The position numbers and the translations under genes are program-made. From NCBI GenBank assembly GCA_020632095.1, contig JACKGF010000002.1, positions 80,502 through 144,501 of the forward strand: 64,000 nt of DNA, written 5' to 3'. Below, piece by piece: positions 1 through 49,004 of the stretch. The stretch is from Candidatus Nomurabacteria bacterium (GTDB lineage: Bacteria > Patescibacteriota > Minisyncoccia > Phycocordibacterales > UBA918). The notes under the pieces were generated by a model. It did no database searches and had not been told where the DNA came from. It worked only from the letters and a program-made list of their open reading frames with translations. Numbering within the stretch: the stretch's first letter is position 1; every line of letters starts with the position of its first letter.

Positions 1-152
1 GTGTCCGTGCCCTAGAGGACATCTACGTTACCCTTAAGACCAAGTAGACAGTAATTTGTCTTAGTACAAAAATCGCCTGACAAGGGCGATTTTTGGGTAT
101 TTGTTCTATGCGCGTCGATGAAATGCCCTAGGAAAGGGGCATTTCACTGACG

Positions 153-390
153 TACATTCACAATATGCCCTTCGGGCATTTGTTCACTGAATCAGAATTT
201 GCCTAAGGCAAAACAAATTCTCGTGCACAGCATACAGAAAATACATTCCTTTCAGTCATTATTTTCTAGCAATATACATTCACAATATGCCCTTCGGGCA
301 TTTGTTCACTGAATCAGAATTTGCCTAAGGCAAAACAAATTCTGATATACATTCACAATATGCCCTTCGGGCATTTGTTCATGCAAAAGG
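153..390 (+). repeat. Tandem ~69-bp repeat (2 full copies 153-221 and 275-343, truncated third 348-390), each with hairpins atgccc-ttc-gggcat and ttgcc-taa-ggcaa
   Basis: Direct sequence identity between copies; irregular spacing (122 and 73 bp); flanked by further GC-rich hairpins at 71-95, 121-144 and 393-416. Confidence 0.8.
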
Positions 391-890
391 GCGCCCCCTC
401 CAGGGCGCCCTTTTACTTTGTACAACGTAGAGTTCGGCTTGCGCGCTTTGCTCGTAGCCTCGAGCTAAGTATTTTTATACTTCACCACCGCACAAACCTA
501 GTTACAGATTCTCATATTGAGCCCAATAGTCAACAAGTTAGAATGTTGTTGTTTTTGGACTAGGTTGTGAATAACTTGTGAATAAGTACTGTATAACTAT
601 TGGGATAAGTTATGTATATATCGAGGGATAAATTATGTACAAACCTTAGTGATAAAAGTTGTAAAAACACCCTTTTAATCTCTTTTTTCTACTTAAATTA
701 ATTAGTACCTAACTCCTCCATTTTCACCAGATAAAATAAATCATACTCAATCTAAAAACACTAGCATTTTTTGACTTTTTTGCTATGATAGTGCGCACTT
801 ATCAGATAGTCTAAAAACTAGAGAGTTAAGTATGACCAGTCGCTAGAAATTCAATCAACCCATCACCCCAAAATTTCTACCGCACAAAAT

Positions 891-962
891 GGTCCCATCG
901 TCTAATGGTTAGGACGCCAGGTTTTCATCCTGGAAATCGGGGTTCGATTCCCCGTGGGATCA
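891..962 (+). tRNA. tRNA-Glu (anticodon TTC), no encoded CCA
   Basis: Cloverleaf: acceptor ggtccca/tgggatc, anticodon arm ccagg-ttttcat-cctgg, T-arm cgggg-ttcgatt-ccccg; followed by terminator hairpin 978-998 + T-run. Confidence 0.85.
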
Positions 963-977
963 CACGTAGAAAAATGA

Positions 978-1005
978 GCACACCTTTCCGAGGTGTGCCA
1001 TTTTT
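978..1005 (+). terminator. Rho-independent terminator after tRNA-Glu (gcacacct-ttccg-aggtgtgc + cattttt)
   Basis: 8-bp GC-rich stem, 5-nt loop, T-run. Confidence 0.6.
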
Positions 1006-1010
1006 CTTGT

Positions 1011-1060
1011 GTGATCCCACGAGTAAACCTGCTGGGAGCAGGTTTACGGGGGAATCGAAG
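1011..1060 (-). repeat. Inverted copy of tRNA-Glu T-arm/acceptor 3' end interrupted by 27-nt perfect palindrome (gtaaacctgct-ggg-agcaggtttac)
   Basis: gtgatcccac...gggggaatcgaag is the reverse complement of ttcgattccccgtgggatcac; palindromic insert sits between the T-stem and acceptor segments. Confidence 0.8.
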
Positions 1061-1362
1061 CTGTTGCCAGCCAGATTATGAACGGAGTGAAATAATCAGG
1101 CGACAACGGATACTGGTTGTGTAACAACCGATACTCCCCATGGGATCACAATATATTTTCTTAACAAAAACACCGCCAGGTGTTTTTGTTTTGGAAAATA
1201 ATTGTGATCCCACGAGTAACGTGCCCTGCGGCACGTTACGAGGGAATTGCACTCAAGAGTACTTCCGTTTTACGTTCCTTTCAGTCATTAAAAACTAGGG
1301 CGCCCGCCGGAGCGATGTGAGGAGCTTGCGACGAACGAGTGAGGTGTGTCCCGCGGCACTTG
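1061..1362 (+). repeat. Modules A (1061-1130), B (1131-1252: direct tRNA-end copy, terminator hairpin, inverted tRNA-end copy with variant palindromic insert) and C (1253-1362: inverted repeat ttcctttcagtca...tgactgaaaggaa); re-occur at 3385-3603 and 3806-3875
   Basis: Near-identical second copies downstream of the high-GC ORF; internal hairpins. Confidence 0.8.
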
Positions 1363-1760
1363 CTAGTCTGTGACTGAAAGGAAACGACCTAGAATTCAAG
1401 GAGTGAAACGACTATGAATACGGAAATGCCCTTGTGGTGAAAATAGCTTTGTGACCGTCAGGATCATTCCCTGTCAGAACTATCACCTATATGAACAAAC
1501 TGGATAACATTACAACACGAAAAAATTTTCCGGAGGACCGACCTCCGTAGTTTGGCTAGTCTGTGACTGAAAGGAAACGACCTAGAATTCAAGGAGTGAA
1601 ACGACTATGAATACGGAAATGCCCTTGTGGTGAAAATAGCTTTGTGACCGTCAGGATCATTCCCTGTCAGAACTATCACCTATATGAACAAACTGGATAA
1701 CATTACAACACGAAAAAATTTTCCGGGGGACTTTTCCGGAGGACCGACCTCCGTAGTTTC
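1363..1760 (+). repeat. Tandem duplication of a ~192-bp unit (1363-1554, 1555-1760; third copy 3604-3795); each unit has a strong SD (aaggag) + 8-codon mini-ORF MNTEMPLW + terminator hairpin (ccggagg-accga-cctccg + tagttt)
   Basis: Copies near-identical; copy 2 has a 13-bp internal duplication; mini-ORF ATG at 1414, 1607 and 3656. Confidence 0.85.
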
Positions 1761-1903
1761 TTCTGGAGGCTAGCGTACTCTTCGGGAGTGAGGCTATCAA
1801 TGTATCCACGGTTTTGTATTGAGTCGATTTTTACCAAGGCCCAGTAGTCTGTTAATTCGTGTGCGTGCACGACAAAATCTCTTAGAATTTTTTCATTTTT
1901 CAT
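1703..1903 (-). CDS. Hypothetical small protein (66 aa); 3' end lies in repeat unit, no clear SD
   Basis: ORF only; low-complexity-free sequence but no recognisable domain. Confidence 0.25.
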   Translation of the reverse strand: MKNEKILRDFVVHAHELTDYWALVKIDSIQNRGYIDSLTPEEYASLQKKLRRSVLRKSPPENFFVL

Positions 1904-2153
1904 ATTGTTTATTTTTTAATTGTTAGCGCTGACGCGCATGAGTAAAGTTTGCGAGAACTTGAAAGAATCCTACACCAAATCACCGCAGAAGAATATGACT
2001 AAACATAGAAGAATCACAAACGTGAAAAATGTGGTGTAGTTTGATTTTTTCTGCATTTCTAAGAGTTGCAAATCTTTTAAAACACCGTCGTTTGTGGCAT
2101 AGTGTCTTTTGGAACGCACATTGACGTATCCACCAACGCCTAAGGAGGCTCAA

Positions 2154-3185
2154 ATGACTGGTGCACTACTAAAAATGAACGCCTTCGTCCAGGTGGCGGA
2201 GGGTATGCATGTCTACTACGACTGCCCGATGATGTCCGGCGAAGATTTTCGGAGCGATCAGTTTTTCAAGGAAAACCGGGGTAAAACCGGCCTCGTGAAG
2301 GGCTTCCCTGAGAAGTTCGTCGGGCCGCTTGATTCCAAGGGCCGTCTGCCGGGTGTCTACATCAAACCCGGCTACATCCATGTGCAGTTTGAAGGCGAGG
2401 AAAAAGTTCACCAAGGACTCAACCTCCACTATTTCATTCTGCTCGACGTCGGCCAAACCGTCGTGCCCGAAGCGAGCCTCGAACACCAAAAGGTGCGCGA
2501 CTTGCCAGAGGCGATCGAGTTCTGGCCCGGTGATCAGGTCTGCAAAGTAAACGACCTTCTTCGGACGGTTCGTTTCGTCGAGGATGTCCGCATCGGAGAC
2601 AACGGCGCGCTGATTTACGTCCTCGCCGAAACTGCCGAAGCGAAACAGCAACGGCAGGATGAAAAGGAGGCGGAGATCGCTCGTCGGCGTGAAGAAGCCA
2701 AGAAGAGTGACGACCCGCTTGCGGGATTTCCACTCGGACTCGGTCTCATGGACCATCCGCGCACTGAATCGCGCAAGGCCAATGACCTCACTCTCGTGAC
2801 TCGGGGGAACGTCTATCACCTCTATCACGATCCTGCTCAACTCGCTTTTGCTTCTTCAGAACAGGAAGTGGGATTCTGGGCGAAGGACGGCATCTCGACG
2901 ACTGTCTATGGCGGCGGCAACCACATGCCTCGCTGGGAATGGCCGATCGAGAAAGCCAGGGAGATGGTCGAGAAGGGCGATGGCGACCTCGTGATTGCGT
3001 CCAAGCAATACGAGAATGTCATTGTCACTGGCCGTGGTGGCGACTTCAAGGTTCGCAAACTGCATTCCTGCTTCGCCCAGCATCGCGAGCGAGTGCGTGC
3101 ACTTTCGCTCAGCTTGGCCAAGCCTCCGGTCGAGGAAGACATTTCCTTCGGCAAGAGGGCCATGGCCCTGCTCGGCGACGACTGA
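2154..3185 (+). CDS. Hypothetical protein (~344 aa), high-GC (~57%) foreign gene; likely start at ATG 2154 preceded by aaggagg
   Basis: Long ORF with strong SD; GC far above window average (many antisense ORFs in the same span are GC artefacts); followed by GC-rich terminator 3209-3242. Confidence 0.7.
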   Translation: MTGALLKMNAFVQVAEGMHVYYDCPMMSGEDFRSDQFFKENRGKTGLVKGFPEKFVGPLDSKGRLPGVYIKPGYIHVQFEGEEKVHQGLNLHYFILLDVGQTVVPEASLEHQKVRDLPEAIEFWPGDQVCKVNDLLRTVRFVEDVRIGDNGALIYVLAETAEAKQQRQDEKEAEIARRREEAKKSDDPLAGFPLGLGLMDHPRTESRKANDLTLVTRGNVYHLYHDPAQLAFASSEQEVGFWAKDGISTTVYGGGNHMPRWEWPIEKAREMVEKGDGDLVIASKQYENVIVTGRGGDFKVRKLHSCFAQHRERVRALSLSLAKPPVEEDISFGKRAMALLGDD

Positions 3186-3206
3186 TGCCAATTGGAAAGT
3201 TCGACT

Positions 3207-3242
3207 CAGCGCGACCCCTCACCCGGGTCGCGCTTTTTCTTT
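3207..3242 (+). terminator. Rho-independent terminator (gcgcgaccc-ctcaccc-gggtcgcgc + tttttcttt)
   Basis: 9-bp GC stem plus T-run immediately after stop of 2154-3185. Confidence 0.7.
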
Positions 3243-3384
3243 GGTTACCAAGATATAAAAATCGTCAAAAAGTGTCACTTTTGTCACTTTTTGCTCCTCT
3301 CGAGAAGGGTCAAGACTGATTTAAACTGATTATTCACGAAAGCCTTACAGGGGAATGTATTATCATGGTTCCATCACGATTCGG

Positions 3385-3962
3385 CTCACAATATATTTTC
3401 TTAACAAAAACACCGCCAGGTGTTTTTGTTTTGGAAAATAATTGTGATCCCACGAGTAACGTGCCCTGCGGCACGTTACGAGGGAATCGCACCCCAAGAG
3501 TACTTCCGTTTTTACGTTCCTTTCAGTCATTAAAAACTAGGGCGCCCGCCGGAGCGATGTGAGGAGCTTGCGACGAACGAGTGAGGTGTGTCACGCGGCA
3601 CTTGCTAGTCTGTGACTGAAAGGAAACGACCTAGAATTCAAGGAGTGAAACGACTATGAATACGGAAATGCCCTTGTGGTGAAAATAGCTTTGTGACCGT
3701 CAGGATCATTCCCTGTCAGAACTATCACCTATATGAACAAACTGGATAACATTACAACACGAAAAAATTTTCCGGAGGACCGACCTCCGTAGTTTATATA
3801 GACGACTGTTGCCAGCTAGATTATGAACGGAGTGAAATAATCTGGCGACAACGGATACTGGTTGTGTAACAACCGAAATTCCCCGTGGGATCACAAATCA
3901 ACCGGCCGAAATGTGAATACATTTCGGCCGTTGCTGTTTGTAGGTCCCACGGGGAATCGAAG
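3385..3962 (+). repeat. Second copy of modules B-C-D-A plus direct tRNA-Glu 3'-end fragment (3876-3895), terminator-like hairpin (3907-3930) and inverted tRNA-end copy without insertion (3942-3962)
   Basis: Sequence identity to 1061-1760; aaattccccgtgggatcaca and its reverse complement aggtcccacggggaatcgaag. Confidence 0.8.
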
Positions 3963-4251
3963 AAAGCTTCTGGCGAAGCGGACGAGAAAGCCTTCTCGTC
4001 CGCACAGAAGCGGCGGGTGAAAAAGTCTGGGGGACTTTTGCAAGAGGTTGCCAGCTCGCAAGAGCGACAACCTGAACAGAATTCGTAAAATTCGCGTAAC
4101 ACAATATTTTGGAAGCTTTAGCTGAAGAAAATATTGATGTGAAGGTGACCGATTCCCTGTGGGATCACAAATTTTTAAGCTTGTTTTACAACACTATTTC
4201 AGACGACCTCACAAGGACATTGGACCCGTGATAAAATAATGGAATGATTAA

Positions 4252-4914
4252 TACGTTAATTTTGATATAAACGGAGTTCTCAACTCACCCACAGAAACAT
4301 CTAGTGAGAAAAATATCTTAAATTCATTTGGTGAAGTCATCTCAAGATTGCAAAATTCTTGTTTGGAAGCAGAAAAGAATAGGGGCGAGCTTTACGAGAT
4401 TTACCACAAATCTTCAGTAAATCTTATTTCTAGAGATGAGATGATAGACAAAATGTCTAACCTTCTATTGTGTAAACCACAAGAACTAGTTAAATGTGTC
4501 CACAATATTTACTCTGAAGGTTCAGTTGAAAACGTGAGTTTGTATGACTTTCTGGAGGCCATATCTAAGAGTAAACTTTTAAAGATTGGCTTACTATCAA
4601 CTCAATTTCCGTTATCAAAGGATATGCTGGTTCCCAAAAAGTATTACGATAACTTTGACTCACTTGGAATTTCTTGTGACAGCGAAATTCATCTCAAAAA
4701 ACCTGAGGGAGCTGTATTTGCAAAAATTATTAAAGAACTAGATACAAAACCAGAAAATGTGATTTTTGTTGATGACCAACAAAAATGCGTTGATGCTGGC
4801 AACCAGTTAGGGATAAATTCAGTTCAATTCATTAATAATAAACAATTAGCAAAAGACTTGGTTAGATTTAAAGTTCCTGGCGAAATAGGTCCATTCCTTC
4901 ATTTTCTTGACTAA
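4252..4914 (+). pseudogene. HAD-superfamily hydrolase-like gene lacking a canonical start; motif I remnant (FDINGV) lies in-frame upstream of first possible start (TTG 4348)
   Basis: C-terminal HAD motifs (KKPEG.., VIFVDDQQ) in the listed ORF 4348-4914; in-frame extension back to stop at 4249 contains YVNFDINGVL but no ATG/GTG/TTG start; flanked by att-like direct repeats 4151-4169 and 4927-4945. Confidence 0.5.
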
Positions 4915-5081
4915 GTGGCTCCAAATCATTCCCCGTGGGATCACAAATTTTTAAGCTATATACAACAACGTATTCTAGAGCACCCTAAGGGAGATTGGAA
5001 CCTTATAGAGGACCACATTGAACTATATTGGTTTTTCTGTATTATAAGAGTAGTAAAGAAATCACATAAGGAAACAAACAC

Positions 5082-5447
5082 ATGAAAGTATATTGTGCTT
5101 CAAAAAGCAAATACGGGCCACTTTGGAAAGAATGGGAAGATAATGGAGTCCAAGTAACTTCCAGCTGGTTGGAGAAATTTGACCAAGGTCGTCTCCCTGA
5201 CCAAACAGAACACTGGGACCAAATTCTTGAGGACATTCAAGGCTCAGATGCATTACTACTCTATTCTGAGGAAGGAGATGTTCAGAAAGGAGCATTGGCT
5301 GAATTCGGCATTGCGTTTGCTTTAGGAAAAAAGTTATTTTATGTTGGACCTACTGAAGGTTCTCTCACTGCAGTGGAGCACAAAAATGTTCAGCATTACC
5401 CTGACTTGAAAACATTCTTCAGCGAAGTATGTGGAATCGCCCAATAA
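5082..5447 (+). CDS. Nucleoside 2-deoxyribosyltransferase-like protein (121 aa)
   Basis: N-terminal KVYCAS and C-terminal ..GALAEFGIAFALGKKLFYVG resemble the 2-deoxyribosyltransferase fold signature (E-x-G-x-A-x-A-L-G-K); SD aagga upstream; terminator 5466-5518. Confidence 0.45.
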   Translation: MKVYCASKSKYGPLWKEWEDNGVQVTSSWLEKFDQGRLPDQTEHWDQILEDIQGSDALLLYSEEGDVQKGALAEFGIAFALGKKLFYVGPTEGSLTAVEHKNVQHYPDLKTFFSEVCGIAQ

Positions 5448-5465
5448 AATAACCTCAAGGGTCCA

Positions 5466-5518
5466 AGCCGTCCGCAAAAAGCCAGTCTATGGACTTGCTT
5501 TGCGGACGGCTTTTGTTT
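5466..5518 (+). terminator. Rho-independent terminator (agccgtccgcaaa...tttgcggacggct + tttgttt)
   Basis: 13-bp stem plus T-run. Confidence 0.6.
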
Positions 5519-5652
5519 ATACAATTCCACTCCTTCAGCTTCCCCACCTATTGGTTCCAAATCACACCCCTTAGGGTCACTAATTTTCGTGCTAGCACAA
5601 GAAGCATACAATATATTATCCCTGTCTCTGTATACCAAGCACCCACATAACC

Positions 5653-6753
5653 CTACAAAGCACACCTAAGATAGGGTTCGATACGGTTGGCGACGATCTC
5701 ATATCCATCATCATCTGGATGAACCAGATCACTCATCAATGATGGATGTCCTATCACTCCCATGAGTACATCTGGAACATAGATAGACCCTGTTGTCTCC
5801 GCTACTTGCTTATATCTGCCTTCTAAATCCTCATCGTATATTCCACCTCTAAAACCAACCACAATAACTATGGCGCCAGTACTTTGGATTCTTTCTATGA
5901 CTGTAGTTAGATTCTCAAAAGTTTCATCTTCTGTAATACCTGCAGAGTCAGGTATCTTACCTGTTAGTTTCAAAACAATAATCTGGAACATTTCATTATA
6001 ATTTAGTTTCTCAATACCCGCCTCAAGATCTTCATAAAAACGGCTGATTATATCATTACCCCCAAGCCACACAATGACAACTGAAGGATTGCGCGACAAA
6101 ACATCACTCTGTAATCGGACTAAAGAATCTTCAGTTGTGTCACCAGATTTACCAGCGTTAATGATTGGTACACCTACTTTTCGTGACAACTGACTGACAT
6201 AATCCTGCCCATTTGTCGCCCCAACACCAGCCGTTAAGCTGTCGCCGAAGGCAATAATCGGACCACTCTTAGGAGGGTAATTAGTAACCTGATTCAAGTA
6301 CGAGACTGAACATTGACCACCCCCACCAGTTTCAGTAACTACGGTAAAGGGGTTTGATTTGGCGACTCGGGTGTATCCGCTGTTTTTGAAATAACGAAAC
6401 TCGTAACTTCCTGGTTCTTTTGGTGTAAATTCAATTGTATTGTTATTTCCGCTGACGTACTTCCATGACTGGTAGCGTTGGTCACTATCACCCACCCGAT
6501 ACAGACCTATCCAATCACCACTCAAATTGGCTCCCTCGGGGGTAGTCCAGGTAACAACAATAGATTCGTTGATGACAACATCACTATCAGGAGCAGAGAG
6601 CGTATAGTCAGCTGTTGATTGAGCATTTCCAGTTAATGGAAACAAACTAAAAGCAACTAAAAGTAGTGAACTTAAAAACCATAACCTCGAAAAATTGAGT
6701 ATTGAGTATTCATAGTCGTTGATTAAACTTACGAGCTGTAGCCCGTGACACAA
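5653..6753 (-). CDS. Secreted SGNH/GDSL-family hydrolase (lipase/esterase) with N-terminal signal peptide and beta-sandwich-like domain
   Basis: GDSL block IIAFGDSLTAGVG, block III VIVWLGGNDI, C-terminal DLVHPDDDGYEIVA (DxxH); hydrophobic N-terminus. Confidence 0.7.
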   Translation of the reverse strand: MCHGLQLVSLINDYEYSILNFSRLWFLSSLLLVAFSLFPLTGNAQSTADYTLSAPDSDVVINESIVVTWTTPEGANLSGDWIGLYRVGDSDQRYQSWKYVSGNNNTIEFTPKEPGSYEFRYFKNSGYTRVAKSNPFTVVTETGGGGQCSVSYLNQVTNYPPKSGPIIAFGDSLTAGVGATNGQDYVSQLSRKVGVPIINAGKSGDTTEDSLVRLQSDVLSRNPSVVIVWLGGNDIISRFYEDLEAGIEKLNYNEMFQIIVLKLTGKIPDSAGITEDETFENLTTVIERIQSTGAIVIVVGFRGGIYDEDLEGRYKQVAETTGSIYVPDVLMGVIGHPSLMSDLVHPDDDGYEIVANRIEPYLRCAL

Positions 6754-6962
6754 CCACTACACCACTGATGTCCTCTACGGCATATGCTACCTTATAGTCT
6801 AGTCATAATTTAGATGTTGTCAAAGAAATGAAATAAAGGGTCAGAGGGTCTGACTGGTGGAGTCAGTAGCTCTCTTTATTTAGTGCTCTAGTGCATATAT
6901 AGTCCTCTTTTATTTTTCTTTTTTTACTTGTTCAAATAACGATCTCTATTTCACATTGAATC

Positions 6963-7406
6963 ATGAATAAATTCTATGTGGTATATTACAAATTAATGAA
7001 TTTAGATAAATTTCCGCATAATAGCAAATCCCCACTCGAAGGTGAGTTATTGGACCCTGAAGAACTTGACCCTGAGTTTCTCAGAAAAATGACGGAGTTA
7101 CCCGAAGTAGTTGCAAATTTTTACATAACAGCAGCCAAAGATACTAAATTATTAAAAATACTATACGGAAGTACTGACTACTTTGTAGATAAAACAAATC
7201 AAGAACTGGTTGATAAGTTTCTTAGTGTAAACCCAGAGTACAAAACAATTTTAGAACAAATGAAAGAAATTGATATGTTGGATAAAGGAGACACACCTAT
7301 CTTTGCACAATATCACAGAGATCCTTTTGACGACGCAAGAGATATTACTCCTCAAAACGAAACCCCTATAATCTCAACAAATGAAAATAAATTACCTAAA
7401 CCATGA
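6963..7406 (+). CDS. Hypothetical protein (147 aa), AT-rich islet
   Basis: ORF only. Confidence 0.4.
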   Translation: MNKFYVVYYKLMNLDKFPHNSKSPLEGELLDPEELDPEFLRKMTELPEVVANFYITAAKDTKLLKILYGSTDYFVDKTNQELVDKFLSVNPEYKTILEQMKEIDMLDKGDTPIFAQYHRDPFDDARDITPQNETPIISTNENKLPKP

Positions 7407-7469
7407 GTTTGATAAAACACCCAAGTAAATGGTAACTGTCACGTTTTTCACCGAGTTAACACCAAATCT

Positions 7470-8726
7470 TTATGTTAATAGTAATTTGCCTGACACGTCT
7501 AACTTTACATTTTGTCCATTTTTTTCTGCAATTGCAAAACCACTATCATCCCTATAAGACCCTACAGTGTCATATTCGCCAACAACATCCCCTGTTGTTG
7601 TATCAACAATCATAAATTTATCCTCAGGTGTCCCCACAATCCACAAATTACTTTCTTTTGCATAATTTCCAATGTTCTGATGATTTGGGTACTGATCAGC
7701 AAACAATTCCCTATCCTTAACCACGTCGTAAAGACCAAACGATTCATTCCCATATTCCACAACTGCAGTCTGACCTACTACTTCAACTAAGTTTTTAAAT
7801 TCTACAGAGGAATAAGAACCTGTCTCAGGATTGATTATCCGAAGTTTATCATATGGACCAGACGCTAGCCCTACACCATTTTTCCTACCAATCATCCATG
7901 TTCCTCCAAGCTCTCTTCCAAGCCTTTCTGTTGAGCAGATTTGGTCTCCCTTGGAATTTACCAGACTCTCTACACCTTGATCATCCTTAAGAATACTTAA
8001 CCCTTCTTGCATACCTGCTACAACACTACTGTATCCATTTTCTCTGGCGAAATGGGCGGTCTCAACAGCACGTAAAACCCGATCCTGGTTTTCACCATCT
8101 GTAACTAACCCTGAAAGTCCTTTTGATGAATTAATAAAGTAAAAATCAGATCTTAAGTTGTAAGTGCGATTACCATATTCCAAATCAAACTCGCCCACAG
8201 TAACATGAGACGATGATGGTTCAGTATTAAAAGAATACTTTCCCGCTTTTTCAAAATCAACACCATTTACGGACTCAACTTGCTCAACAGATGTTGGTTC
8301 AACAGTATTTGTTGAATCAACATTTATTTCAAACTCACTTACTGCCTTCTCACCAGAAAATTCTTTTATTTTATGACCAAAAACCGTAGCTACTGCTGGA
8401 AGATCTTCAGCAATTTGTCTTCGAGCATCTTCACCTTCTTCAGAAGTATAATCGAAAGCGGTTTTTAAAAGTTTGACTAGCTCACCAATACCCATTCCAA
8501 AACTTTCTTGCACTTTATCGGGGTTACTACCTCGCACTATATTATTTATACCGTCAGGGTCAGATGCAAATGAAATAATAACTTTAAAATCAGATAAATA
8601 ATTAGAACTTTCTTGAGAAACAACTTCCATCCTAGAGCCATCAGTATCTACACTCAATTCAACCGGACGCTCTTCCTCCCCATTACTAGGTACTGCTGAC
8701 ATTGGTCTATTAAAACTTTCTTTCAT
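7470..8726 (-). CDS. Hypothetical protein (418 aa), AT-rich islet
   Basis: Long ORF, no recognised domain. Confidence 0.5.
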   Translation of the reverse strand: MKESFNRPMSAVPSNGEEERPVELSVDTDGSRMEVVSQESSNYLSDFKVIISFASDPDGINNIVRGSNPDKVQESFGMGIGELVKLLKTAFDYTSEEGEDARRQIAEDLPAVATVFGHKIKEFSGEKAVSEFEINVDSTNTVEPTSVEQVESVNGVDFEKAGKYSFNTEPSSSHVTVGEFDLEYGNRTYNLRSDFYFINSSKGLSGLVTDGENQDRVLRAVETAHFARENGYSSVVAGMQEGLSILKDDQGVESLVNSKGDQICSTERLGRELGGTWMIGRKNGVGLASGPYDKLRIINPETGSYSSVEFKNLVEVVGQTAVVEYGNESFGLYDVVKDRELFADQYPNHQNIGNYAKESNLWIVGTPEDKFMIVDTTTGDVVGEYDTVGSYRDDSGFAIAEKNGQNVKLDVSGKLLLT

Positions 8727-8899
8727 AGTGTGTATTCATTAAAGCGGTATGGATTATTAAAAAGATTAATTTTTATCATATCATAATCTACAAAACAACA
8801 ATCACCACCTTTGTATCTCTTTTTTATTTTAATATAATTCAGCATGAACCTGCTACCTCAAACTAATAAACTGGAAAAGTTCGTGTTATCATCTCAGAC

Positions 8900-9682
8900 A
8901 TGAAATCCTACTCTTTTTTTTCACCCACTTCGGCTGAGTTTATACATTCTTATGCTGACGAACATAATGTCAGTGATTTTTTTACCGACTTATACACCAA
9001 CCCTCAAGAAGATAACTTGTCACAATCAGCAACAAAACCAATCTATGTCGTGGCTGATGGAGTAACCTTAGACTTCAAAAAATTACTATTGACTGGCAGA
9101 CCTTATCCTGACCCGTCACCAGCTGGTAATGTATCTAAAATATTTTGTAACGAAGTAGTATCTAAGGCGGAGGAGCTATATCCAATTTTCGAGGAAGAAT
9201 TAATTACTGAAACCTTTATTTATGCCAACAGTAAAGTTGAAGAGTACAACAAACAGGAAGGAGAAGTGATTATTTCTGGCAATGTGACTGGTAAGTTTTC
9301 GGCTACCGGTAGCTTCATGATCTGTAAAGACAACAAGGTCTTTTGGATGAGTATCTGTGACTCCTACTTTGCTCATTTTGACAAAAACATGAATTTAAAA
9401 TTTATATCTTCTGGATTATGCAACCCATATGCTGTTATTAATGGTGAACCTAGAATGGTAGATCGTATTGAGTCTGGTTCTTTTAATATTGACCTTGATG
9501 ACAGACTGTTTGTTTTCACTGACGGATTCTATCACTATGTTAAAGATAAAGATTTTCTTAATCTATTTCTTAATTTTGAAGACTCTTTAATTGAGAGAGT
9601 CGTAGATTTTTCGAAAGTCAAAACCCCAATTGATCCAGACAAATTTGGACACGAACGCTCCTTGATTGCAGTAAAAATCTAG
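8900..9682 (+). CDS. Hypothetical protein (260 aa); weak PP2C-like motifs (VVADGV ... VFTDGF)
   Basis: ORF; motif resemblance only. Confidence 0.45.
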   Translation: MKSYSFFSPTSAEFIHSYADEHNVSDFFTDLYTNPQEDNLSQSATKPIYVVADGVTLDFKKLLLTGRPYPDPSPAGNVSKIFCNEVVSKAEELYPIFEEELITETFIYANSKVEEYNKQEGEVIISGNVTGKFSATGSFMICKDNKVFWMSICDSYFAHFDKNMNLKFISSGLCNPYAVINGEPRMVDRIESGSFNIDLDDRLFVFTDGFYHYVKDKDFLNLFLNFEDSLIERVVDFSKVKTPIDPDKFGHERSLIAVKI

Positions 9683-9864
9683 CAATTTTTGCCTCGACCG
9701 ATTACGACCTAGGTTAACAGTTCAAGAAATGAGGCACAATATTTACACACAACCATTCCATAATTCGACAATACAAAATGAAATATAAAAAACGATAAGA
9801 TCGGAATCTTCTCGTTTTAATGTTTTTGATCTAATACTCAGAACAAATCTGCGTTAATGTACAT

Positions 9865-10134
9865 GTGTACGGCAATACCAGCCTCACAACCCAGCACAAT
9901 GATTGGTATCCATCGCAAATGACTCATGAAAGTGTAGCAGCCCTTAGCTATCCTTATCAAAACAAACCAGCCGCAACCATCACTGGTTTTGACTTGCAAA
10001 ACCTAATATACCCCTCAACCATCACCAGAGCATACACAAACGCAACCAGCGACACAGTGCCTACTCAACCACTAATCAGACTATTTTCACTCAACACCTT
10101 TCTTCTTAATAATTTAAAGACCAAAATCAGCTAG
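9865..10134 (+). CDS. Hypothetical small protein (89 aa)
   Basis: ORF only. Confidence 0.2.
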   Translation: MYGNTSLTTQHNDWYPSQMTHESVAALSYPYQNKPAATITGFDLQNLIYPSTITRAYTNATSDTVPTQPLIRLFSLNTFLLNNLKTKIS

Positions 10135-10214
10135 CTAAGATTTTGTAAAGCTGTTGAATACTTTATAAATCTTTAACAAACACCCTGTCGCTATTCACTA
10201 CTATTTCTGCTAGG

Positions 10215-10799
10215 ATGAAAAACATGAAAATTACGTCGGCAAAATTTATAACCGGTTTGGTGGGTGATAATGAACTTCTGAGAAATGGAACTCCACAAAT
10301 CGCTTTTATTGGTCGTTCAAACGCTGGAAAGTCCAGCTTGTTGAATTCTCTGACTAATTCTAAGAAATTAGCGATCACTAGTAAAACTCCTGGGCGAACC
10401 AAAGAGATTAATGTTTTTTTGATAAACAATACCCACTACTTTATGGACCTACCAGGCTATGGGTTTGCCAAGGCAGGGGCACAGACCTTAGAAAAACTTA
10501 GTTCACTTATCTTTTGGTACCTGTTTGAATCTAAAAACAATCCAAAAGTTGTCATACTAATTGATGCCTTTGTGGGACCAACAATTGATGATTTGGCCGT
10601 ACTAAAAGAATTAGAAGAAACTGGCAAGGAAATTGTTGTGGTTGTAAATAAGGTAGATAAAATAAAAAGTTCACAGTACCAAAACCAACTTAAAAAACTC
10701 GATGAACAACTCCCCGGGCACAAACTCTTCCCCTACTCTTCCACTAAGAAGATTGGTATAGATGAATTACGCAACGAACTTTTATCAGAGTTACCCTAG
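10215..10799 (+). CDS. engB: Ribosome biogenesis GTP-binding protein EngB/YsxC
   Basis: P-loop GRSNAGKSSL, G-motifs, typical EngB length and N-terminal ITSAKFI. Confidence 0.85.
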   Translation: MKNMKITSAKFITGLVGDNELLRNGTPQIAFIGRSNAGKSSLLNSLTNSKKLAITSKTPGRTKEINVFLINNTHYFMDLPGYGFAKAGAQTLEKLSSLIFWYLFESKNNPKVVILIDAFVGPTIDDLAVLKELEETGKEIVVVVNKVDKIKSSQYQNQLKKLDEQLPGHKLFPYSSTKKIGIDELRNELLSELP

Positions 10800-11045
10800 A
10801 CCTAAAAAATGTTTGCTACATGTCAGACACCGACCTCAAATGAACTGAGCAAATTTTGCCAATAACCCAGTTTTACCAACTCCCTAAGCCCTAAGTCGGT
10901 CTTATCTTAGGAGGAATGAGACGACACCCTATCATAATTTCTTAGCACAAACAATTGATTATTGTCCAAAATATTAACCAAGATCTAAGATAGTTTAATG
11001 AGTAACATGCTATATTGATAGCCTATTAAATAAGACTTGTAGCCA

Positions 11046-11780
11046 ATGAAACTGATTTCACTTAATCTTGAAGGAAGACGGCACCTTGATACTGCCCTGC
11101 CTTTTCTTGAGAAAGAAAAGGCTGATTTATTGACCCTTCAAGAAGCTCCGGAAGAGATTGTACTCTGGCTTAAGGAACAGGGATATAAGACGACTTTCTT
11201 AGCACGATGTCTTAAAACTCAAGACGGTGTCCAGTATACTGACGGAGAAATTATTGCCAGCAAACAACCCCATCAGGCTGAAACCTTCTATTACTACAGA
11301 CCGAGTGATAGTATCTTGGAAGAAAACCTGAGTGACCGGCGGTTAACTAATGCACAAGGCTTGATTTTTGCGACCGTTGGAAACTACAAAATTGCTACCA
11401 CTCACTTCACTTGGCATCAACACGGCGAAATCGCCGGTGTTCACCAAACGACCGATATGAAAACTTTGTTGCAATATCTAGACACCAAACCCCCTCATGT
11501 TCTATGTGGTGATTTTAATATTCCACGATTATATAATTCACTCTACTCAGAATTAATTAGTCACTATAAAGACGAGATTCCTAAACACTACCTTTCAAGT
11601 CTTGATAGAAATTTACATAAACATGGCGCAAACGAAGAGATACAAAAATTATTCGACAGTTTTATGGTCGACTACGTGTTTACCCAGCCTCCCTACCACG
11701 CTACTAACACTAGATTAGAATTTGGAGTGAGTGACCACGCGGCAGTGATAACCACCTTGTCGGTGGATTCTGTGTCATAA
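11046..11780 (+). CDS. Endonuclease/exonuclease/phosphatase (EEP) family protein
   Basis: N-terminal LNLEG...LQEA and C-terminal GVSDHAAV motif. Confidence 0.6.
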   Translation: MKLISLNLEGRRHLDTALPFLEKEKADLLTLQEAPEEIVLWLKEQGYKTTFLARCLKTQDGVQYTDGEIIASKQPHQAETFYYYRPSDSILEENLSDRRLTNAQGLIFATVGNYKIATTHFTWHQHGEIAGVHQTTDMKTLLQYLDTKPPHVLCGDFNIPRLYNSLYSELISHYKDEIPKHYLSSLDRNLHKHGANEEIQKLFDSFMVDYVFTQPPYHATNTRLEFGVSDHAAVITTLSVDSVS

Positions 11781-11787
11781 TACTTCG

Positions 11788-12303
11788 ATGAGAAGGGTTG
11801 GTATTTTAAAGTTGTTAATAGGTGCAGGGTTGATCATTAATGCTTTGGGGCAGATTTTTGCTCACCAAACTTGGTGGTTTATTCAGAATGTAAACCTCAT
11901 TTTTCATGAAGCTGGACACGTGGTGTTTATGTTCTTTGGTAATTTTATGCACACTTTTGGCGGGTCATTGCTAGAAATGCTGATTCCCTCCTTAGTGACT
12001 CTACACTTCTACCGATCCAAGCAATTATTCTCGGCCGCTTGTACCAGCTGGTGGATGGCCACGGCGTTTTTAAGTGTCAGTATCTACGCTGGTGATGCTC
12101 GTGAAAGGCTGTTACCTCTAATTACCAGAGATATTTCAACCCACGATTGGTTTAATATTTTAGTCTCTTTCAACCTCCTTGAATACGACGATTTAATTGG
12201 TTACATTTTTTGGTGCCTAAGCTTGCTGTCTGTTGGTTTGATTGTTTACTTTTTATATCGAGATGAGCAAGTGACAGCCTGTATACAAAAACTCAATATA
12301 TAG
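11788..12303 (+). CDS. Small polytopic membrane protein with HExxH (HEAGH) motif, M50B-like/DUF3267-type putative zinc peptidase
   Basis: HEAGH within a hydrophobic helix; multiple TM segments. Confidence 0.45.
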   Translation: MRRVGILKLLIGAGLIINALGQIFAHQTWWFIQNVNLIFHEAGHVVFMFFGNFMHTFGGSLLEMLIPSLVTLHFYRSKQLFSAACTSWWMATAFLSVSIYAGDARERLLPLITRDISTHDWFNILVSFNLLEYDDLIGYIFWCLSLLSVGLIVYFLYRDEQVTACIQKLNI

Positions 12304-12393
12304 ACAGTCTTGACGATGACAGAATCCTTATATTATACTACTATTTAACACGGAGTTGTTTCCTTTTTATTACACATATACAGGAGGTTTGCC

Positions 12394-12750
12394 TTGAAAA
12401 AGCAATTTGAACTAGATGTCAATCTGTGGTTTGTGAAGCTATACTTCTGGTGTCTCGACATCTGCGACGAATTCATGTGTCGACACACACCACGTGATGG
12501 TGGTGGTCGGTGCCTAGCAATTCGCACTTGTTGTATCTGGACTCCGGTTGCTTTTCTCTGTAATCTGGCAATTATCTGCGGAGCTCCGTACGTACTTCTC
12601 TATTATACAATCGACCGATTTGGTCTAGAAGGATACGGAACTGGTCTTTTCTTCACAGCTGGATTAATCGGAGCAGTCTCACTAGTGTCCCGTTTAACTT
12701 CCCAAAATCTCAAACAACCCTTAATTTATAAGTATCATTTGTATAATTAG
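12394..12750 (+). CDS. Cys-rich hypothetical membrane protein (TTG start after aggagg)
   Basis: ORF with SD; hydrophobic C-terminus. Confidence 0.4.
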   Translation: MKKQFELDVNLWFVKLYFWCLDICDEFMCRHTPRDGGGRCLAIRTCCIWTPVAFLCNLAIICGAPYVLLYYTIDRFGLEGYGTGLFFTAGLIGAVSLVSRLTSQNLKQPLIYKYHLYN

Positions 12751-12779
12751 GTTTTTTCGATTTCAATCTAAAACCAGTT

Positions 12780-14040
12780 TTTTCAGTAATAATAGATTGA
12801 GTTTATCAGACTTAATCTATCATTATGAATCGAGGTGTCTACGTGTTTTCTCAAATTATGGAGTTTGTCGATGATTATGAGTTTAGAAAATGTGTGGAGA
12901 GATATAATGGTGAGTACCGCATTCGAAAATTATCTTGCCGACAACAATTCACAGCCATGATCTTCGGTCAGCTGGCATACCGGGAAAGTCTTCGCGATAT
13001 TATCACCTGTCTGGGTGCTCACGAAGAAAAGTTGTATCACCTTGGCTTTAGACAAAAAATCGCCCGCAACACCTTGGCCTCAGCCAACCAGAAAAGAGAC
13101 TGGAGAATCTACCGAGACCTAGCGATGGTGCTCATTGCCAGAGCCAGACCAATGGATCCAAAGTCAAAAGAAATCATTGAGCTTGATTTAGATGCGACAG
13201 TCTATCTGCTAGACTCAACGGTGATAGATTTGTGTTTAAGTCTGTTCGGCTGGGCCCGGTTCGATGCTCAACATTCTTCGATTAAGCTGAACATGCAACT
13301 TGATTTAAATGGCTCTATTCCTGCGTTTTTCACTATCACTGAAGGCAGAGTGAACGACGTGAATTTCCTAGATGAGATTACGTTCGAGCGTGGTGCGTAC
13401 TACGTCATGGACAAAGGGTATCTTGATTACGAACGTTGGCACAAGATACATCAAGCTGGAACATTCTTTGTTACGCGAGCTAGGCATAACATGTCGGTAC
13501 GGCGTTTGTATTCTAATGTGGTACGTAAAGAAACTGGTATTCTTTGTGATCAGATTGTTGTTCTGTCAGGGAAGAAAACCATGTGGCGTTATCCTGATAA
13601 GATGCGGAGGATAAAGTACCGCGATGCTGAAACCAATATTGCGTATGTCTTCGTTACTAATGATTTTAACAGTGATGCTTTGGTGATAGCGGTATTGTAT
13701 AAATACCGCTGGCAAGTCGAACTGTTTTTTAAATGGATTAAACAACATTTGAAGATTAAGTCTTTCTGGGGCACCAGTGCCAATGCTGTGAAGACGCAGA
13801 TTTGTCTGGCACTATGTGCTTATCTACTGATGGCTATCATTAAAAAACGGCTCCGGATTGAGCTTGATTTATACAAAATGTTACAGATTACGTCAGTGTC
13901 TCTATTAGACAAAAAGCCTTTAAAAACACTGTTTTCTAGGACTTTGGTACAATCTGATGTCAAGGGTGGGCAAGACAGCCTTGGTTTGCAATGGTTTTAA
14001 ACGGGACACTAGTGGGAGCAGTCTACATTTTCTTTATAAC
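12780..14040 (+). mobile_element. IS4-family insertion sequence (approximate ends)
   Basis: Contains transposase 12825-14000; ends not resolved. Confidence 0.5.
12825..14000 (+). CDS. IS4-family DDE transposase (DUF4372 N-terminal + DDE_Tnp_1)
   Basis: N-terminal MEFVDDYEFRK...QQFTAMIFGQL (DUF4372-like), DDE region with DKGYLDYERW and C-terminal YRWQVELFFKWIKQHL. Confidence 0.8.
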   Translation: MNRGVYVFSQIMEFVDDYEFRKCVERYNGEYRIRKLSCRQQFTAMIFGQLAYRESLRDIITCLGAHEEKLYHLGFRQKIARNTLASANQKRDWRIYRDLAMVLIARARPMDPKSKEIIELDLDATVYLLDSTVIDLCLSLFGWARFDAQHSSIKLNMQLDLNGSIPAFFTITEGRVNDVNFLDEITFERGAYYVMDKGYLDYERWHKIHQAGTFFVTRARHNMSVRRLYSNVVRKETGILCDQIVVLSGKKTMWRYPDKMRRIKYRDAETNIAYVFVTNDFNSDALVIAVLYKYRWQVELFFKWIKQHLKIKSFWGTSANAVKTQICLALCAYLLMAIIKKRLRIELDLYKMLQITSVSLLDKKPLKTLFSRTLVQSDVKGGQDSLGLQWF

Positions 14041-48056: not shown

Positions 48057-49004
48057 CTACCCCTCAAGTAGGACAGATTGCTCATAATAATACTCACTCG
48101 AAATCCTAAAATCAATACACTCTTTCGGTCGGTCATTCAAGAAGGCATGAATCTCATTCAATTCTTCTTGAGTAACAGACGCAATGTCTCTCCGCTTTGG
48201 AACAAAGCATCTAATCCAACGATTAGTATTCTCTACCAGTCCCTTCTCCCAAGAATGATAAGGGTGGCAGAAATAGATTGGAGCCTGTATGATTTGTTCT
48301 AGTTCCGTCCAGTGACGGAATGCAATGTCGTTGTCGGTGGTGATACTCTTGACTATAATATTGCTAAACATTTTAGAGAACGCTGCACTGATTGTGTGGC
48401 GTTTTCTATTGGGTAACTGACGTACCAAGCTGTATTTAGTTAAACGGTCAGTAGCCACTAGAAGTACGTATGGACTGTACTTAGAGACAATGAAGTCTAG
48501 TTCATAGTGACCTAGCTCATGGCTACCAAGAGGACGAATATCTATATATTTACGGCCATCATCAGCTGGTTTATGTGTGGTCCGTTTCGGACCACTTTTC
48601 TTTTTGTTCCAACGCCAGAATAGTCGATATTCCAGACCACGACTTTCTATGAACTTGTATATAGCTTTGGCGGAACAGGTAACACCGAGCTCTCGTTTGA
48701 GATGTCCACTGATTTGTTTAGGGGTCCACTTCTGCTCTAGTTTGTCTTCTACGAAGCTTACTAGGAAACTATCCATTGCCACCTTGAGACACTGACGTTT
48801 AGCGCGCCAACGACGTTGACTTACTTTTAGTTGGGCTTGCTTGGCGTCATAGACTCCATTAACCCTATTCTTCTTTAGTTCCTGACTGATGGTGTTGGGA
48901 CTACGTTTGAGGAAGATGGCTATTTCTCTGATCAAACTCCCTGCGTTCAATAACTTTTCAATTACGAAACGCTCCTCAAATTGTATGTGTCTGTATGTTT
49001 TCAT
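48057..49004 (-). CDS. IS30-family transposase
   Basis: N-terminal HTH (MKTYRHIQFEERFVIEKLL...), DDE core, 315 aa. Confidence 0.85.
   Translation of the reverse strand: MKTYRHIQFEERFVIEKLLNAGSLIREIAIFLKRSPNTISQELKKNRVNGVYDAKQAQLKVSQRRWRAKRQCLKVAMDSFLVSFVEDKLEQKWTPKQISGHLKRELGVTCSAKAIYKFIESRGLEYRLFWRWNKKKSGPKRTTHKPADDGRKYIDIRPLGSHELGHYELDFIVSKYSPYVLLVATDRLTKYSLVRQLPNRKRHTISAAFSKMFSNIIVKSITTDNDIAFRHWTELEQIIQAPIYFCHPYHSWEKGLVENTNRWIRCFVPKRRDIASVTQEELNEIHAFLNDRPKECIDFRISSEYYYEQSVLLEG

Follow-up and report, generated by a model that had tools for sequence, protein, structure and literature searches.

The tRNA-Glu locus and its cargo

The window analysed here is a 64,000-nucleotide stretch of contig JACKGF010000002.1 from a Candidatus Nomurabacteria bacterium. 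It is bacterial chromosome, with GlmS, LepA, MurJ, a class I tRNA synthetase and TsaD among the encoded proteins. Near its left end, a gene for tRNA-Glu(UUC) at 891..963 on the plus strand (ARAGORN; Rfam tRNA model, 65.7 bits) anchors an array that reaches to 5582 and contains copies of the tRNA 3' end, gene-bearing segments and structured non-coding modules; this array is the subject of the present analysis. The genomes sharing the 31-nt 3' half of this tRNA are all metagenome-assembled genomes (MAGs) of Patescibacteria (Candidate Phyla Radiation, CPR), except for two other lineages. The stretches 1479-3584 and 3635-12819 were recovered at 99.9-100% in independent metagenome contigs, so the layout is not an assembly artefact; the short-read contigs of the organism end within the repeats. 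Metagenome samples with this organism include ERZ27248697 and ERZ27309364, and there is a MAG, GCA_020428725.1. Loci compared with the window are designated by L numbers.

The repeated sequence is the 17-mer TTCCCCGTGGGATCACA at 948-964 (copy D0), inside tRNA-Glu. With up to 3 mismatches it has 9 matches in the window, against 0.07 expected from dinucleotide shuffles, and 9 matches were reached in none of 100 such shuffles. Direct copies follow on the plus strand at 1134-1150 (D1, 2 mismatches), 3879-3895 (D3, 0 mismatches), 4153-4169 (D4, 1 mismatch) and 4929-4945 (D5, 0 mismatches), and a degenerate one at 5564-5582 (D6) emerged from the repeat search (family D3). The initial annotation had named these five repeats behind the tRNA, together with an extended context around the last copies; both are borne out, the context being 72% identical over 69 nt between 4890-4958 and 5526-5594 (family D6). 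It had missed a further degenerate direct copy at 3369-3392 (D2'; also delimited as 3363-3392) and four inverted copies, at 1010-1059 (I1), 1203-1250 (I2), 3443-3490 (I3) and 3941-3962 (I4). In I1-I3, the complement of the acceptor strand, TGTGATCCCACG, and that of the T stem/loop, GGGGAATCGAA, are split by a side hairpin of 23-25 nt. Two duplications are recent: 1143-1553 equals 3383-3795 at 98-100% identity, and 1061-1151 equals 3806-3896 at 95%.

Read from left to right, and on the plus strand unless stated otherwise, the array begins with junction palindrome J0 (943..1059), made up of the tRNA 3' end, a bidirectional terminator hairpin at 978-998 and I1 with its side hairpin at 1024-1046. 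An A-type non-coding module (1058..1150; core 1058-1133) ends in D1 and has its 95% duplicate at 3806-3896. Junction palindrome J1 (1134..1250) comprises D1, a terminator and I2 with side hairpin, and leads into a stretch (1251..1746) that comprises the first copy of a C-type structured module, with a covariance-model match, its tail and a 193-nt partial tandem duplication (1461-1746, repeat family D1). An open reading frame (ORF) of 66 aa on the minus strand (1703..1903) has no family match and may be spurious, its C-terminal part overlapping repeated module sequence. The gene for a 343-aa protein (2154..3185) is followed by a terminator at 3208-3234 and by the right end of its segment (3296..3392), with an attR-like site GGTTCCATCACGATTCGGCTCACA at 3369-3392 (D2'); this right end is 81% identical in L103, at the same position. 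Junction palindrome J2 (3376..3490), near-identical to J1 and containing I3, precedes the second C-type module (3491..3795, 100% identical to 1268-1553) and the second A-type module (3806..3895), which ends in D3. Junction palindrome J3 (3873..3962), with D3, a bidirectional terminator at 3903-3930 and I4 without side hairpin, opens a fourth type of non-coding module (3963..4169) that ends in D4 (4152-4169). Two gene-bearing segments close the array: that of a HAD hydrolase (4170..4945), whose frameshifted gene is followed by GGCTCCAAATC and D5 (4928-4945), and that of a deoxyribosyltransferase-like gene (4946..5582), with the gene at 5082-5447, a terminator-like hairpin, GGTTCCAAATC and the degenerate D6. 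The hairpin and T-run after 5082-5447 were read from the sequence and are absent from the terminator scan list. The trailer AATTTTCGTGCTAGCACAAGAAGCATACAA (5583..5611) lies beyond.

At 4151-4176 and 4927-4952, the direct copy itself has the form of a small quasi-palindrome, GATTCCC.GT.GGGATC, with ACAAATTTTT after it; the centre of this quasi-palindrome in the direct copies is the point at which the side hairpin breaks the inverted ones. The terminator scan scored the copy at 4151-4166 as terminator-like, while the copy of the same sequence at 4927-4952 is absent from its list.

The proposal that each interval between copies holds one cargo gene fits only part of this map: the intervals 964-1150 and 3896-4169 have no gene, and 1151-3895 contains the 343-aa ORF plus non-coding modules. 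The GC content of that ORF is 54-58% in 300-nt windows, against about 30-45% in the flanking DNA, a contrast that counts toward a foreign origin of the cargo. Its protein has 24 homologues among 5.8 billion proteins; the single one with a source name comes from a Patescibacteria MAG, the inspected contigs are Patescibacteria-like, and some homologues sit in core contexts, for example between ftsZ and ftsA. The protein has no Pfam, PHROG or PDB sequence match. It is predicted to form several small beta-barrels and a long helix, and its AlphaFold model (pLDDT 85) has no Foldseek PDB match below E 0.05, small SH3/Tudor-like barrels being the only resemblance.

The second cargo ORF (4348-4914) matches Pfam HAD_2 at 2.5e-7 with the first ~33 profile positions missing. 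As read from the nucleotide sequence, the gene is frameshifted, with its likely original start at ATG 4244 and a 1-nt shift in the T run at 4262-4265, and the frameshift is counted as decay of the cargo. The third gene encodes 121 aa with a weak likeness to nucleoside 2-deoxyribosyltransferases (Pfam E 0.002, below the cut-off); in L066, too, tRNA-Glu is followed by a 121-aa gene, with weak similarity to this one.

Structured modules and junction palindromes

The architecture of 964-1151 recurs behind tRNA-Glu in about 20 of 62 genome loci, and consists of a bidirectional-terminator palindrome, an inverted copy with side hairpin, GGGAATCGAA, a core of 100-250 nt, CGATTCC with the tRNA end, and a terminator. 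A-like modules are found in L054, L027 and L096, and homologues of the fourth type lie behind tRNA-Glu in L075 (79% over 144 nt) and L029 (93% over 59 nt). A motif scan of metagenomes with the C core gave 26 loci, behind genes for tRNA-Glu, tRNA-Gln, tRNA-Gly or tRNA-Ala, with a mean column identity of ~80% across the four tRNA species. The ends of the modules follow the neighbouring tRNA: over 12 specific positions the direct copy shares 10.5 with its own tRNA but 4.4 with tRNAs of other types, and the inverted copy agrees with the complement of its own tRNA at 8.4 of 10, against 5.3 of 10. Both kinds of copy match the adjacent tRNA where this is Glu, Gln or Gly, whereas loci with tRNA-Ala have not kept the direct copy (4/12 in L084).

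These figures bear on the idea that the repeats have no relation to tRNA-Glu and are chance matches or REP or terminator elements of the ordinary kind. Most copies do adjoin terminator-like hairpins, as such elements would. The excess of matches in the window and the way in which the direct copies track the adjacent tRNA rule this out, leaving it barely credible.

The C core can be drawn with 32 pairs, 12 of which have changes on both sides, and 97.4% of its cells are paired, against 29-40% in slid structures. Its covariation is 0.305, against 0.145 in shuffles, a value that none of 500 shuffles reaches. Invariant G-U pairs put the structure on the tRNA-sense strand, making it strand-specific. 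Judged from the alignment, the C core is a real structure with the properties expected of structured RNAs in general. The covariance model built on it (R1) finds the two copies in the window at 1302-1470 (69.3 bits, E 8e-14) and 3544-3712 (62.3 bits, E 4e-12). It also matches the GGCGGAG-type modules of other loci at lower scores, so that these module types form one superfamily. Rfam 15, searched with window 1-7000 and 23 related loci, gives matches to tRNAs only, with E values as permissive as 1-5 allowed, and searches of the literature turned up no description of these modules or elements. The copies at 1010-1250 and 3376-4169 are ends of conserved structured RNA-like modules and are not boundaries of gene cassettes; about half of all copies flank such modules and are more than simple scars.

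Model R1 also finds modules of the same superfamily on the other side of the tRNA. At L040 2630-2860 and L071 6660-6900 (minus strand), a partial tRNA copy (..CATCCTGGAAATCGGGG), which begins with the anticodon arm and extends as far as the T stem's 5' strand, stands upstream of the intact tRNA-Glu and is followed by a Y-shaped palindrome and a module, an arrangement that, on its sequence, looks like a mirror image of the downstream one.

Several known RNA and element types were considered for the modules and set aside. ARAGORN finds no transfer-messenger RNA (tmRNA) and no split or intron-containing tRNA, and D and anticodon arms are missing; the group I introns described from Patescibacteria tRNAs are anticodon-loop introns only (PMC13011429). 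A primer-binding site for a tRNA-Glu-primed retroelement does not fit inverted copies without the complement of CCA, and no protein of the bridge-RNA (IS110) or TnpB-type guide elements was found. The module ends can pair as an acceptor-on-T-stem helix around a large structured domain (the fold of 1010-1151 is at -62 kcal/mol, z -6.8), which recalls the tRNA-like domain of tmRNA, mascRNA and the bacterial Y RNA YrlA. Unlike those, the mimic here copies the adjacent tRNA, has no T-loop and matches none of these Rfam families.

The junction palindromes J0-J3, each composed of direct copy, terminator and inverted copy, fold at -56 to -83 kcal/mol with z scores of -8.5 to -13.7 (J0, -83.1 and -13.7; J1, -63.3 and -10.1; J2, -56.1 and -8.5; J3, -57.3 and -10.0, in kcal/mol and z respectively). 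In each, the stem is long, is capped by the terminator hairpin and bears a side hairpin. Spacers and side hairpins vary in sequence between loci and keep this shape, and in L083 the pairing partner of the inverted copy is the upstream copy and not the direct copy of the same module; upstream copy, spacer and inverted copy therefore form one entity. The palindrome may be an RNA signal, a structure for recombination or replication of single-stranded DNA, or a self-correcting DNA palindrome. Behind the copies lie terminator-like hairpins, of which 20 were found against 5.8 expected. The gene-bearing junctions show no significant structure (4141-4232, z -0.5; 4917-5003, z -1.4), and the inverted att-like copies that seemed to lie right of 4169 and of 4945 were rejected, their folds being no better than those of shuffles.

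Such structures could mean that tRNA-Glu simply lies within a vertically inherited cluster of structured non-coding RNA genes. The copies would then be RNA elements, for instance closing stems that mimic acceptor and T stems, or processing or termination signals; selection, or gene conversion in the palindromes, would hold them in step with the tRNA, and the ORF segments would have entered by homologous or illegitimate recombination between repeats, with no site-specific recombinase. The covariation and strand-specific G-U pairs of the C core, the surplus of terminator-like hairpins behind the copies and the spacers that change in sequence and keep their shape all agree with this. So do the presence of modules on both sides of tRNA-Glu in L040 and L071 and the order of the A and C modules, which is common to L096 and the window. 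In addition, the 410-nt repeats, 98-100% identical, flank the 343-aa segment as an insertion by homologous recombination would leave them. On the other hand, the same C core stands behind four tRNA species, with ends matched anew for Glu, Gln and Gly, which needs relocation beyond inheritance. Together with evidence from the junctions given below, this makes an inherited RNA locus a rather unlikely origin for the array, though it is the chief alternative to the reading favoured below.

Recombinase elements and the original attachment site

Beyond 5582 the window reads AATTTTCGTGCTAGCACAAGAAGCATACAA, a homologue of the trailer found immediately behind tRNA-Glu in the insert-free loci L059, L049 and L073. 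The window at 5574-5611 is also 89% identical over 38 nt to the attR flank of L074, to the right of a 5.5-kb element, and AATTTTCGTGCTAGCACAAGAAGCATACAA aligns with the sequence after the last copy in L103. A distal copy followed by the ancestral trailer, the chromosomal side of the original attachment site, identifies 964-5563 (4.6 kb) as inserted DNA that separates the tRNA from its former 3' end and trailer. Direct repeats of the 3' part of the tRNA bound the insert, and the distal repeat is followed by the flank of an empty site as seen in distant relatives. The empty site at this locus would read tRNA-Glu, directly AATTTTCGTGCTAGCAC, and then the lipase gene. An inherited RNA locus leaves unexplained why the trailer stands 4.6 kb from its tRNA.

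Relatives carry complete elements at this position. L074 encodes a 512-aa protein with Resolvase, Recombinase and Zn_ribbon_recom domains, by which it is classed as a large serine recombinase, and its C-terminus overlaps the tRNA-Glu 3' end. The element also encodes a rolling-circle Rep and a NERD protein, and its right end, 5.5 kb downstream, is GGTTCCAATTTAAACTAATGTGGGTCACCA plus trailer. Searches with tblastn found a recombinase 62% identical to the L074 enzyme at the same position in L083, more distant recombinases abutting or overlapping the tRNA-Glu 3' end in L023, L024 and L044, and recombinase remnants in L035 and L083. The occurrence of a recombinase at the homologous position in L074, L083, L023, L024 and L044 suggests that the window holds remnants of such elements or elements dependent on an enzyme in trans. 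The recombinase ORFs (L074 4836-6371, L083 6986-8497, L023 6800-7999) reach ~35 nt into the opposite strand of the tRNA-Glu gene, with the C-terminus ..VIPRGIEPRFPG, so that integration and excision would leave the enzyme with different last residues.

These recombinase elements terminate in the same GGTTCCAA..GGGTCAC motif as three junctions of the window. The full right-end signature, GGTTCCAA(A/T)TC followed after 5-8 nt by GGGTCAC, occurs here at 3369-3392, 4917-4945 and 5553-5582. It is found in 11 other loci, with L107 as one more case, and where a locus includes a tRNA-Glu gene, the signature shares the strand of that gene and comes 0.9-5.5 kb after it. L083 is a tandem array in its own right, in the order tRNA, recombinase element 1, attR1, palindrome with C module and direct copy, recombinase remnant, ORF and attR2. 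Neither a module between two recombinase elements nor a terminal motif shared with such elements is accounted for by an inherited RNA locus.

Content differs at the repeats among related loci, as far as comparisons without a clean with/without pair for any single window segment can tell. L001 and the 88%-identical locus L103 both leave the window sequence exactly at 3295/3296 and continue with a different extra gene each, after which L103 rejoins with a homologue of 3296-3389. In L103 the 343-aa gene stands in an equivalent array beside a module of another type, and the array ends in a direct copy and the ancestral trailer. L077, L078 and L096 have near-identical C modules, and right after the direct copy three unrelated sequences. 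L001 (ERZ27309364 k141_365265, 1-2127) is a strain variant of the window, with the right end of a 343-aa-type segment (window 3340-3392), the palindrome, one C module without the 193-nt duplication, the 66-aa and 343-aa ORFs and then a gene lacking in the window (MKEIAFLNPENVTEDEV..).

The att sites of large serine recombinases are quasi-palindromic, 40-50 bp long, with a crossover dinucleotide at the centre. For the present elements, the comparison covers attL and attR from L074 and L083 along with attB sequences from distant loci, and a putative attP would read GGTTCCAATTT..AAT joined to GTGGGATCACCA... Matches of the 17-mer in viral contigs were rejected as attP, being only chance matches in a repeat-protein gene (L011-L013) and a phage tRNA-Glu (L014). 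In L011-L013 (IMG/VR), the 17-mer recurs every 138 nt, and its reverse complement encodes the repeated ..CDPTGKF.. of a beta-propeller-like repeat protein, so this recurrence is a coincidence and not an att array. The viral contigs scanned contain no C-core motif and no relatives of the 343-aa protein or the L074 recombinase.

The forked palindromes also recall a different route, that of integrons and CTX-like elements. Here the junctions of 83-117 nt would act like attC sites: a single-stranded junction would fold into a forked hairpin whose stem imitates the double-stranded tRNA 3' end, and a tyrosine recombinase, IntI-like or Xer, would recombine it with the tRNA gene and so insert the unit beside the tRNA. 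J0-J3 fold beyond their shuffles with a long stem and a protruding side hairpin; the junction sizes fall within the attC range; the inverted copy of L083 matches the upstream copy and not the direct copy of its own module; and the rolling-circle Rep of L074 implies a single-stranded DNA stage. Against this, neither the window nor the surroundings of the related arrays inspected yielded IntI or another tyrosine recombinase, and the enzymes that were found are serine recombinases. The gene-bearing junctions are not significantly structured, and many of the supposed cassettes have no ORF. A classical integron (the initial annotation had entertained an integron-like cassette array) finds no support, since the scanned ORFs include no IntI and no attC with RYYYAAC/GTTRRRY boxes was seen on reading the repeats by eye, no dedicated attC model being run; the arms are the tRNA end and its complement. 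Recombination of this single-stranded type is accordingly very unlikely.

Origin of the array and comparison with known systems

The reading that we favour, and hold to be moderately probable, sees in the array the decayed remains of inserts that form a ladder at a tRNA attachment site. Serine-recombinase elements would have made or seeded this ladder and later lost their recombinase, and structured modules that belong to such sites would be interleaved with it. The stretch 964-5582 would be a mosaic, integrase-less array of small inserts gathered at the tRNA-Glu 3' end. Each insertion would push the previous tRNA 3' end downstream and bring a replacement, giving a ladder of direct copies of which the oldest and most decayed, at 5564-5582, would lie beside the original trailer. 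One class of inserts would be the three gene-bearing segments (343-aa; frameshifted HAD; deoxyribosyltransferase-like), each ending in GGYTCCA..TC and a copy of the tRNA end; their right-end signature is that of complete recombinase elements, and they are read as the stripped remains of such elements. The other class would comprise four or five structured modules (A, C and the fourth type), each with a palindrome before it, which pairs the upstream tRNA-end copy with the inverted copy across the bidirectional terminator, and a direct copy at its end. These modules would be RNA structures of the transcribed strand, rather than single-stranded DNA structures, belonging to a conserved family that travels with such sites. 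The junctions of the window would be the work of a large serine recombinase that has been lost or acts in trans, and not of a tyrosine integrase; the part played by this enzyme is inferred, as is the order of the insertion events.

Serial site-specific integration at a tRNA gene, as first proposed for this locus, is thus supported by the ancestral trailer, by the recombinase elements of relatives with the same terminal motif and by the variation at the junctions. The accompanying idea that the enzyme might lie upstream of position 1 finds no support, since in relatives its gene lies within the insert, directly against the tRNA 3' end.

Several observations weigh against a ladder built by serine recombinases. 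No recombinase was found within the element, as had been noted from the start: Pfam on 28 ORFs of the window gave no recombinase or integrase domain, and tblastn with the L074 enzyme gave no recombinase gene or remnant at E<0.01. The case for an empty site draws on homologous trailers in distant lineages, not on close relatives with the lipase gene, and the viral contigs yielded no attP-bearing free form. Serine recombinases normally need 2-bp identity and do not re-recombine attL or attR, whereas identity blocks of 17-19 nt and a tandem ladder are more typical of tyrosine integrases. No standard integrase mechanism explains the inverted copies and long palindromes. The structured modules found upstream of tRNA-Glu in two loci and the A/C order kept in a third, cited above for an inherited RNA locus, count on the same side.

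The modules could, alternatively, be miniature elements mobilised in trans, in which the inverted copy within the forked hairpin, placed right before the conserved core and complementary to the 3' end of the target tRNA, sets the insertion site by base pairing or hairpin mimicry and not through recognition of DNA by protein alone. This would explain how one core came to lie behind four tRNA species (Glu, Gln, Gly and Ala), its ends matching in each case and still doing so for the first three, and it is put forward as a quite unlikely but specific mechanism.

Set beside known systems, the ladder resembles the tandem islands and integrative elements at the 3' ends of tRNA and tmRNA genes. As in these, direct repeats of the tRNA 3' end bound the inserts, the gene is kept intact by a replacement 3' end, the oldest copy is distal beside the original flank, and the cargo is accessory and decaying. 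In the Williams 2002 scheme and the Islander database, the identity blocks of such islands reportedly run from the T-loop to the tRNA end. The present inserts differ in being only 0.1-2.7 kb long with no integrase left, in that the enzyme of the relatives is a large serine recombinase, and in that half of them are non-coding structured modules, each behind a palindrome with an inverted tRNA-end copy. With elements of the phiC31, Bxb1 and TP901-1 type, L074 and L083 share a Resolvase, Recombinase and zinc-ribbon enzyme that is encoded at one end of the insert and points outward, and characteristic sequences at both junctions. In contrast to that type, these elements target a tRNA 3' end, and their recombinase ORF continues across the tRNA gene on its other strand; the repeats of 12-19 nt exceed the 2-bp core, tandem accretion is unusual, and the att sites are putative. 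Integron arrays and clusters of attC sites lacking integrases (CALINs) resemble the array in their short units, several of them single-gene and in the same orientation, in imperfect palindromes of ~80-120 nt between units and in having no recombinase nearby. The array departs from them in its want of IntI, attI and R/L boxes, in palindromes that derive from a tRNA and in its many units of structured RNA. The island as such is of a known kind; what is new is its setting, the enzyme class, the tiny single-gene remnants and, above all, the tRNA-matched modules.

The surroundings of the array have features of their own. Upstream of tRNA-Glu, a 69-nt unit occurs three times at 153-416, two copies being identical and each having two small hairpins (ATGCCCTTCGGGCAT, TTTGCCTTAGGCAAA), and a 20-nt piece of the C-module leader lies at 242-261; the upstream side of the tRNA is therefore likewise repeat-rich and without genes. 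On the minus strand, 375-525 contains a stretch of ~100 nt (AGGTTTGTGCGGTGGTGAAGTAT..GCAAAGCGCGCAAGCCGAACTCTACGTTGTACAAAG) followed by a strong terminator. This stretch is 83-89% identical near tRNA-Glu in six Patescibacteria loci (L036, L042, L060, L015, L062 and L075), shows a long-range stem that is conserved and a hairpin whose pairs change in a compensatory way, and includes neither an Rfam match nor an ORF; from these features it looks like an undescribed small RNA gene. Farther along the window, an IS4-family DDE transposase (DUF4372 and DDE_Tnp_1) at 12825-14000 marks the point where the short-read contigs L006 and L007 stop, and an IS30-like transposase (HTH_38 and rve) lies at 48057-49004.

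Patescibacteria have tiny genomes and few described mobile elements, and this locus and its relatives show tRNA 3' ends as insertion hotspots in these bacteria. Large serine recombinase elements, one of them with a rolling-circle Rep, use these sites, and stripped single-gene remnants accumulate there. A widespread family of structured non-coding modules, absent from Rfam, stands behind four tRNA species, with ends that copy the tRNA in both orientations for Glu, Gln and Gly. If this matching reflects the choice of target, it would be a new way to aim insertions; if it reflects an RNA function, the modules would be a new class of tRNA-end mimics.

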